Source: a virus (Duplodnaviria; Heunggongvirae; Uroviricota; Caudoviricetes). From it: a stretch of DNA of 24,304 nucleotides. Positions within the stretch are counted from its first letter, which is position 1; each line of letters starts with the position of its first letter. The position numbers were made by a program. The stretch lies in IMG/VR virus record IMGVR_UViG_642979322_000003. One strand, 5' to 3'. This document shows, one piece after another, positions 21,001-24,000 of this stretch.

Positions 21001-24000
21001 GATAGCGAGGCTGGGCCATTAATATATTCCGCACGCTATCTCGGAGGCACGTTCCGGCGCGGAGGTATAGCAGTTAGTCCGGGTAATGATCTTAGGCAAG
21101 CAACCCACTGGATGTCGCTACCAGAACCGCCGCAGGAGGTGAATCAATGACCTGGCCTGAAGCATTCACAACGGTAGGAATTGCGATGGCGGTGGCGCTG
21201 GTGGTGTATTCGATTTGCCGCTGGGGATAAAAACGGTTTGCGGGAAAAGGATAGTTAAGTAGAATTGCTGCGGGTGCTTGAGGCTATCTGCCTCGGGCAT
21301 GAACACCAACGGCAGATAGAGAAAAGCCCCAGTTAACATTACGCGTCCTGCAAGACGCTTAACATTAATCTGAGGCTCAATCCATGCTGAACACATGTAG
21401 GTTAGCCTCTTACGTGCCGAAAGGCAAGGAGAAGCAGGCTATGAAGCAGCAAAAGGCGATGTTAATCGCCCTGATCGTCATCTGTTTAACCGTCATAGTG
21501 ACGGCACTGGTAACGAGGAAAGACCTCTGCGAGGTGCGAATCCGAACCGGTCAGACGGAGGTCGCTGTCTTCGTAGACTACGAATCTGAGAAGTAAGAGA
21601 CCAGGCGGGGGAGTAATCTCCCGCCACCTCTGATGTGTCAGGCATCCTCAACGCACCCGCGCTTTACCATACTGAAAATGCTGTTTGAATGTTCATCTCT
21701 GAAAGAGGACTATGAATGAAAAAGGTATTGATTGCAGCACTTATTTCCGGTGTGTCTTTTGGCGCTTTTGCACAGCAGGGTGGTTTCCAGGGGCCAGAAG
21801 CAGAGCGTTCAACAGTAGCGCAGGCAAAAGAACTGAAGGATGATGCATGGGTTATCCTTGAAGGGAGCATCGTTAAAAAAGTGGGTGATGAACGTTATGA
21901 GTTTCGTGACAATAGCGGGACAATTGTCACGGATATTGATGACAGCGTATGGGCCGGGCAGAATGTTTCTCCGAAAGACAAAGTAAGAATTGAGGGTGAA
22001 ATTGATAAAGACCTGAGCAGTGTTGAAGTTGATGTAAAGGCACTGAAATTATTAAAGTAACCGCCCCTGCTTGTTAAGCCCGTCTTACTGACGGGTTTTC
22101 TGTTTGTACATTCCGGCGTATTGCCTTACAATTCGCGCAGTCAGCCTGAACAACTGACACCTGCTGTCACCGGAGAATCCGATGACACAACACATAAAAT
22201 CCCACAATTCTGAAGCCGACCCGGAAATTAAGCAGGGGAGGCGTTTTCGTGCGCCTCAGTATGGCTGGTTTCACTATCTGTTCTGTACGATCGATGAGGC
22301 AGATATGCTTCAAGAGGCGTATCTGCGTCGCGGTGTCCGTGTGGAGCGGAGTCTGAACGCTGATCGTCTGACCTGGACCGTTTCTGTATATCTTCCTGTT
22401 CGTGCACATCTGCCACGGACACATGCCTGCTACCGTCAGCGCGTCTGGAGGTAATGTGCGGGTATTACTTCGACCTGTTCTGGTTCCGGAACTCGGGCTG
22501 GTGGTCCTTAAGCCCGGTCGTGAATCATTGCCAGTTTTTCATCGCGGCAGGGTGCTGGTGGAGCCGGAACCGAAAAACATGCGGGCGCTGCCATCTGGAG
22601 CGGTTCCTGCTGTTCGCCAGCCGCTGGCGGAAGATAAATCACTGCTGCCATTTTTCAGCGATGAGCGGGTGATTCGTGCAGCTGGCGGCGCTGGTGCACT
22701 GTCTGACTGGTTATTACGTCACGTGAAATCCTGCCAGTGGCCACACGGCGATTATCATCACAGCGAAACCGTTATTCACAGTTACGGTGCTGGCGCAATG
22801 GTGTTGTGCTGGCACTGCGACAACCAGCTGCGCGACCAGACCTCCGAATCACTTGAGCAACTTACTCAACAAAATCTGACAGCCTGGATGATTGACGTCA
22901 TACGCCATGTAATGAATGGCACGCAGGAGCGGGAATTATCGCTGGCTGAATTATCCTGGTGGGCAGTCTGCAATCAGGTGGTGGACGCATTACCTGAGGC
23001 AGTATCGCGTCGCTCTCTGGGATTACCGGCGGAAAAAATCCGCTCCGTATACCGTGAAAGCGACATCATACCGGGAGAACAGACCGCCACCAGCATACTG
23101 AAGCAGCGCACAAAAAATATTGCGCTACCGCCTCACACCCACCAGCAACAGAACCCACCACAGGAAAAGACGGTGGTCAGCATTGCCGTTGATCCGGAGT
23201 CTCCGGAATCCTTCATGAAACGACCTAAACGTCGCCGCTGGGTAAATGAGAAATACACACGCTGGGTAAAGACACAGCCGTGTGCGTGTTGTGGTAAGCC
23301 AGCGGACGATCCTCATCATCTGATTGGTCATGGTCAGGGCGGAATGGGAACAAAATCCCACGATATTTTCACGCTACCGCTGTGTCGGGAGCATCACAAC
23401 GAGCTTCATGCGGATCCGCTGGCGTTCGAAGAAAAGCATGGTTCCCAGGTTGATTTAATTTTTCGTTTTCTTGATCACGCCTTTGCAACCGGCGTGCTCG
23501 GGTAAAAGAGGTTACTGATGCGTATAGAGTTTGTTTTGCCTTACCCGCCGACGGTGAACACCTACTGGCGACGTCGTGGCAGCACATATTTTGTATCAAA
23601 AGCCGGTGAGCGTTATCGCCGGGATGTGGCACTTATTGTTCGCCAGCAGCGGCTGAAATTAAACCTGTCCGGAAGGCTGGCGATAAAGATTATTGCAGAG
23701 CCACCGGATAAGCGCCGTCGTGACCTGGACAATATCCTGAAAGCACCACTGGATGCGCTGACGCATGCCGGACTTCTCATAGACGACGAGCAGTTTGATG
23801 AAATCAATATTGTGCGCGGCTAGCTCGTTTCTGGTGGGCGGCTGGGCGTGAAGATTTACAAAATTGAAAGTGAGTGAGCATAAATATGATATACCCGGAA
23901 ATTACAGGCAAAAGCGGTGAGCATTTACGCCTGAAAACGCTGGAAAGTGTCTGGATCCAGGGGAAACTGCGTATGTGGGGGCGTTGGTCGTATATTGGCG

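Follow-up and report, generated by a model that had tools for sequence, protein, structure and literature searches.

The rusA locus and its prophage setting

The window, that is the whole 24,304-nt stretch of DNA analysed here, carries near its right end a rusA gene interrupted by an in-frame amber codon (Table 1). The frame opens with the ATG at 23518, ends its translated part with ...DEINIVRG before the TAG at 23821-23823, and then continues as LVSGGRLGVKIYKIESE to a TGA at 23875-23877; the coordinates and the translation that an earlier note on this DNA had given for the interrupted frame agree exactly with the ORF list and with the translation of the window. The gene lies between a DUF968 gene and a DUF1133/Q-like antiterminator gene, for which the annotation of the Escherichia coli O157:H7 genome TR01 (NZ_CP033605.1) gives a DUF1133 family protein, and this order, DUF968, rusA, DUF1133/Q-like antiterminator, is that of a rightward nin-region module, in which TR01 also has an annotated hok/gef toxin gene. 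The ATG of the Q-like gene, at 23886, stands 8 nt past the original rusA TGA and 62 nt past the new TAG, and one may speculate that translational coupling of rusA to the Q-like gene could be weakened by the earlier stop. A promoter and terminator scan of 22000-24304 returned nothing above shuffle expectation.

Table 1. Features of the window discussed in the text.
Feature	Position	Strand	Basis and remarks
NleG type III effector gene	5334-6002	+	Pfam T3SS_NleG
512-aa ORF, ISEc8 (IS66-family) transposase	6585-8123	-	TR01 colinearity; inside an IS256-family remnant there
Integrase and Exo VIII/RecE remnants	10280-12057	-	Pfam Phage_integrase (partial), Exonuc_VIII
IS3-family insertion sequence	18980-20286	-	Break in the window-TR01 alignment; Pfam on ORFs
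BOF/YgiW-family OB-fold gene	21716-22060	+	Pfam BOF
DUF968 (HNH-like) gene	22456-23505	+	Pfam DUF968 2.5e-77; coordinates transferred from the TR01 annotation
Truncated rusA	23518-23823	+	101 codons and TAG; product RefSeq WP_001217444.1; ORF list, translation
Premature amber	23821-23823	+	T at 23821 in place of the C of ancestral CAG (Gln102)
Orphaned rusA 3' end	23824-23877	+	17 codons LVSGGRLGVKIYKIESE and original TGA; outside the translated frame
DUF1133/Q-like antiterminator gene, cut by the window end	23886-24304	+	Pfam DUF1133 4.5e-82, Phage_antitermQ 3.7e-07

The window is colinear with TR01 at 99.0-99.2% identity, save for the 1.3-kb insertion at 18980-20286. This insertion is an IS3-family element absent from the otherwise colinear TR01, with two minus-strand ORFs, one encoding 296 aa with an rve integrase core and the other 108 aa with HTH_Tnp_1; it lies before rusA in the rightward early operon and may be polar on rusA. 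By Pfam, the integrase is reduced to a 183-aa fragment (10280-10831, minus strand) and is followed by an Exo VIII remnant (10813-12057, minus strand). In TR01, the prophage that carries this rusA has a broken J gene, a frameshifted portal gene and an integrase that is both frameshifted and truncated at its N-terminus, and its RecE, YdfR and major capsid genes are each partial. It sits directly after the tail-fibre genes of another prophage, the effector gene nleG7 and IS elements. Judged by these colinear lesions together with the integrase and Exo VIII remnants and the IS in the window, the host prophage is badly decayed and defective. The prophage junction is surrounded by mobile and cargo genes, namely those for NleG, the ISEc8 transposase and the BOF protein. 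In addition, all 40 mismatches to TR01 in the last 4 kb of the window fall in a patch of about 600 nt within the DUF968 gene (22482-23079), a patch that is identical to the corresponding module of the O157:H7 strain PV15-279 and that looks like the outcome of recombination or gene conversion between paralogous prophage modules.

In TR01, the equivalent of window 23518-23823 (segment 6001-6306 of the locus) carries the annotation of a RusA family CDS of 306 nt, without a pseudogene flag, RefSeq/PGAP calling the product, WP_001217444.1, a normal RusA family protein under the name "RusA family crossover junction endodeoxyribonuclease". Indeed, the 101-aa product belongs to the family by sequence match, for it scores 58.1 bits against Pfam RusA (PF05866), well above the curated threshold of 22.8, and the read-through product 59.6 bits. 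With the tail included, the end of the match moves from profile position 109 to position 123 of 124. As to the tail itself, 17 open codons past any stop would be expected by chance with a probability of (61/64)^17, about 0.44, so that open length alone is insignificant and it is by homology that the tail is judged to be genuine RusA: it aligns onto ...VTKGGRLELTITEM of K-12 RusA (1Q8R), in agreement with the C-terminus that the earlier note had given for the canonical protein.

A glutamine codon turned amber, and the spread of the allele

The nearest intact allele, WP_001217447.1, is a 119-aa protein encoded by a 360-nt RusA CDS in UTAK-6 (99.7% identity). Across these 360 nt it differs from the window at one position only (359/360 identical), having CAG where the window has TAG at codon 102, and the more distant allele of TUM9812 (95.6%) likewise has CAG there; a C-to-T transition has therefore turned Gln102 into an amber codon. 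It follows that the protein lacks its C-terminus, as had been proposed, the extent of the loss relative to the intact sister allele being 18 residues (Gln102 and the 17 beyond it) rather than 17. At the DNA level, the orphaned tail is 100% identical to the corresponding stretch of intact 119-aa alleles. Over a longer span, window 20287-24304 (4,018 nt) and the module of PV15-279 differ at two positions only, 23821 and 24200, the former being that of the amber and the latter lying in the downstream gene, where it reads from the sequence as a synonymous GAT/GAC change. The tail looks conserved, then, because the mutation is very recent and there has been virtually no time to diverge.

By megablast, 3,239 of 5,426 complete E. 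coli genomes have rusA-like sequence, at up to 8 places per genome; TR01 itself has 8 such places at megablast sensitivity. A 61-mer centred on the T at 23821 matches exactly in 260 complete E. coli records. Among the 11 exact matches listed, seven are named O157:H7 and four carry no serotype, these four being genomes of 5.45-5.53 Mb from strains of cattle or human origin. For the CAG version of the same 61-mer, 124 records have an exact match, among them O145 and O111:H8 strains and one O157:H7. The two versions together account for 384 records, as many as megablast gave at 99% identity or above. In a collection of 15 billion proteins, the exact 101-aa protein is present on at least 999 contigs and the exact 119-aa protein on at least 1,000.

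Among the best 120 cluster representatives, full-length RusA proteins are mostly 115-126 aa long and the shorter ones are mostly labelled partial. In an alignment of 20 sequences reaching down to 57% identity, the full-length members (107-129 aa) run on through the segment GGRLG(I/V)KI, which is conserved, and all have a sense codon at position 102, be it for Q, K, L, V or E; K-12 RusA has P at the equivalent position. The earlier note had held that homologues naturally ending at the equivalent of 23823 would overturn the truncation; none of the aligned homologues ends there. Three homologues are nevertheless damaged elsewhere: one (P0093) is a 91-aa form that stops after residue 91 and occurs on 20 contigs, and two others (P0059 and P0098) have a frameshift close to the C-terminal end. 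These independent truncations and frameshifts suggest that rusA is often lost in resident prophages.

The idea that the truncated allele is carried by viable phages was considered and rejected. The phage collection has no record with the TAG allele and none at least 95% identical to it, and the RusA of phage Evi, the nearest phage record, is identical up to residue 101 and then continues with LPVPGGRLGVKIYEIMHDGQVQK to a total of 124 aa.

What the truncation removes, and how it may be read

The read-through product aligns without gaps to E. coli K-12 RusA (1Q8R) over residues 5-116 (E = 1.6e-22), the amber codon falling on Pro103 of the K-12 protein. The residues that mutagenesis has marked as important for catalysis and DNA binding in RusA are, in K-12 numbering, R69, D70, D72, N73, K76 and D91 (PMC10956419). 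They map here to Arg68, Asp69, Asp71, Asn72, Lys75 and Asp90, all upstream of the stop, and the catalytic acidic triad with Lys, Arg and Asn that typifies the RusA family is accordingly complete in the 101-aa product. Members of this family cut Holliday junctions symmetrically, with Mg2+ as a requirement, and suppress ruv mutations.

The fold is another matter. The RusA monomer consists of a four-stranded mixed sheet and two helices, the dimer interface being formed between sheets (PMC1636454). A full-length homologue with 96% identity, modelled by AlphaFold2 at a mean pLDDT of 82.6, has strands at 2-7, 17-20, 23-26, 54-60, 93-100 and 109-115 and helices at 13-16, 28-43 and 70-83, and its model matches 1Q8R, 2H8C and 2H8E at TM 0.84-0.85 over 116-119 alignment columns. 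The tail region forms strand 109-115 of this model, after strand 93-100 and downstream of the stop. On the model, then, the stop deletes the last of the four strands, whose sheet also provides the dimer interface, and the complete RusA fold of four-stranded sheet, dimer interface and two helices is not contained in the 101-aa product. The gene is of RusA descent and its product is incomplete as a RusA.

Several readings of the amber have to be weighed against one another. That it is a sequencing or assembly error in a single record, a caveat raised in the earlier note, has the prior probability of single-base errors in its favour and nothing else; with the same allele in 260 independently assembled complete records and the exact 101-aa protein on at least 999 contigs, this caveat is refuted and the chance of an error is negligible. 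The other caveat of the note was suppression, and the corresponding reading is that a suppressor tRNA, or else programmed or leaky decoding, lets translation pass the amber and yields useful amounts of full-length RusA. In its favour, the base after the stop is C, and UAG-C is a comparatively weak termination context; moreover, near-cognate decoding of UAG by tRNA-Gln would give back exactly the ancestral Gln. Against this, ARAGORN finds no tRNA gene in the window, and the prophage's two tRNAs further downstream, as read from the identical locus of TR01, carry the anticodons CAT and TCT. The supE (CTA) form of glnV is found exactly in 155 of 5,424 records, the other 5,269 having the wild-type form, and the 40 supE records listed are all K-12 laboratory derivatives of 4.5-4.8 Mb. 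Nor does the RNA of 23790-23910 fold better than shuffled controls (z = +0.73), there being in it no recoding structure and none that would mask a start site. Lastly, a programmed read-through would be expected to show a conserved stop, and here the stop occurs in a single clonal allele while every other homologue has a sense codon. Suppression is thus unsupported by the tRNAs in and downstream of the window, by the glnV records and by the RNA fold alike; programmed read-through is unsupported as well, at most some basal leakiness may occur, and useful amounts of full-length RusA are very improbable.

A somewhat better, though still poor, case can be made for the 101-residue product being a functional, naturally shorter RusA resolvase in which the C-terminal strand is dispensable. 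The residues defined by mutagenesis are all retained, the product passes the Pfam threshold and is annotated as a normal CDS, and the allele persists in 260 genome records. Yet the deleted segment is conserved in all the full-length homologues aligned, the lost strand is one of four in the sheet that makes the dimer interface, and no diverged homologue ends at this codon; as for the persistence of the allele, it is accounted for by clonal descent and recency (two differences in 4 kb). A more indirect role may also be imagined. With as many as 8 rusA-like loci in an O157:H7 genome, RusA(1-101) might pair with the subunits of other prophages and alter or poison their resolvase, or a trace of near-cognate decoding by tRNA-Gln might give back the ancestral protein in very small, tolerated amounts; this pair of proposals, taken together, is as remote as that of useful suppression.

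The reading favoured here, with a probability of about 0.9, is that of a recent Gln102-to-amber mutation, clonally inherited in O157:H7, that leaves a truncated RusA in a defective prophage. A single recent C-to-T transition changed codon 102 of a lambdoid-prophage rusA from CAG (Gln) to TAG, and the mutated gene encodes residues 1-101 only. The mutant allele would then have been passed down clonally within the E. coli O157:H7 lineage, in a prophage that has already lost its integrase, RecE and head genes and, in the window copy, also has an IS upstream. The product keeps the catalytic residues and is without the last beta-strand of the four-stranded dimer-interface sheet; with this strand missing, RusA(1-101) is, judged by structure and conservation, most likely unstable or unable to dimerise, and without resolvase activity on Holliday junctions. 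Three points count against the favoured reading. The known catalytic and DNA-binding residues are all retained, RefSeq lists the product as an ordinary protein, and the truncated gene has undergone no further decay, although the latter is to be expected of a recent mutation.

Significance and comparison with known prophages and RusA proteins

Taken by itself, the lesion is of an ordinary pseudogene type and matters little: it is an instance of point-mutational decay, in the well-documented pool of defective O157:H7 prophages, that hits an accessory recombination gene in a genome with several rusA-like paralogues (by megablast). Two practical consequences are nonetheless worth stating, namely that the RefSeq name of WP_001217444.1 hides a nonsense truncation, and that the C/T site at 23821 could mark the lineage of the prophage module within O157:H7. 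No paper describing this rusA amber was found; PMC5552260 names rusA only in passing, and in PMC2669165 the terms rusA, resolvase and amber codon have zero occurrences each.

By way of comparison, the latter paper showed that Sp3, Sp11 and Sp12, lambdoid prophages of O157 Sakai whose integrases are disrupted, undergo no excision, replication or packaging (Asadulghani et al. 2009, PMC2669165). The Sp1-Sp18 pool of Sakai and the prophage of the window share the same hallmarks of decay, namely a disrupted integrase, a likewise disrupted recombination gene of Exo VIII type, damaged head genes and IS insertions. As to which member of that pool the window prophage might be, its replication-gene type and its head-gene damage point in conflicting directions between Sp11 and Sp12.

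At the level of the module, the closest relative is that of the sister allele WP_001217447.1, found in UTAK-6, O157:H7 PV15-279, O145 and O111:H8, where rusA is flanked alike by DUF968 and DUF1133 genes and has CAG (Gln) at codon 102, as opposed to the TAG of the window. In PV15-279, a near-identical DUF551-hok-BOF-DUF968-rusA-DUF1133 module occupies segment 8159-14650 of the locus, in another prophage context with an early region disrupted by IS1203. The PV15-279 module belongs to a prophage adjoining rspB, whereas that of the window has a tandem-prophage context; either the module has moved between prophages or the chromosome has been rearranged.

At the level of the family, the RusA of the K-12 cryptic prophage DLP12 (1Q8R, 2H8C and 2H8E) and the rusA genes of lambdoid phages fall in the same family (PF05866) as the gene of the window, keep the same catalytic Asp, Lys, Arg and Asn residues and, like it, stand in the nin region immediately ahead of the Q antiterminator. 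Identity to K-12 RusA is only about 37-38%, as measured in the structural alignment of the 96%-identical full-length homologue. The main difference is that the product of the window ends at residue 101, without the last strand that K-12 RusA possesses.
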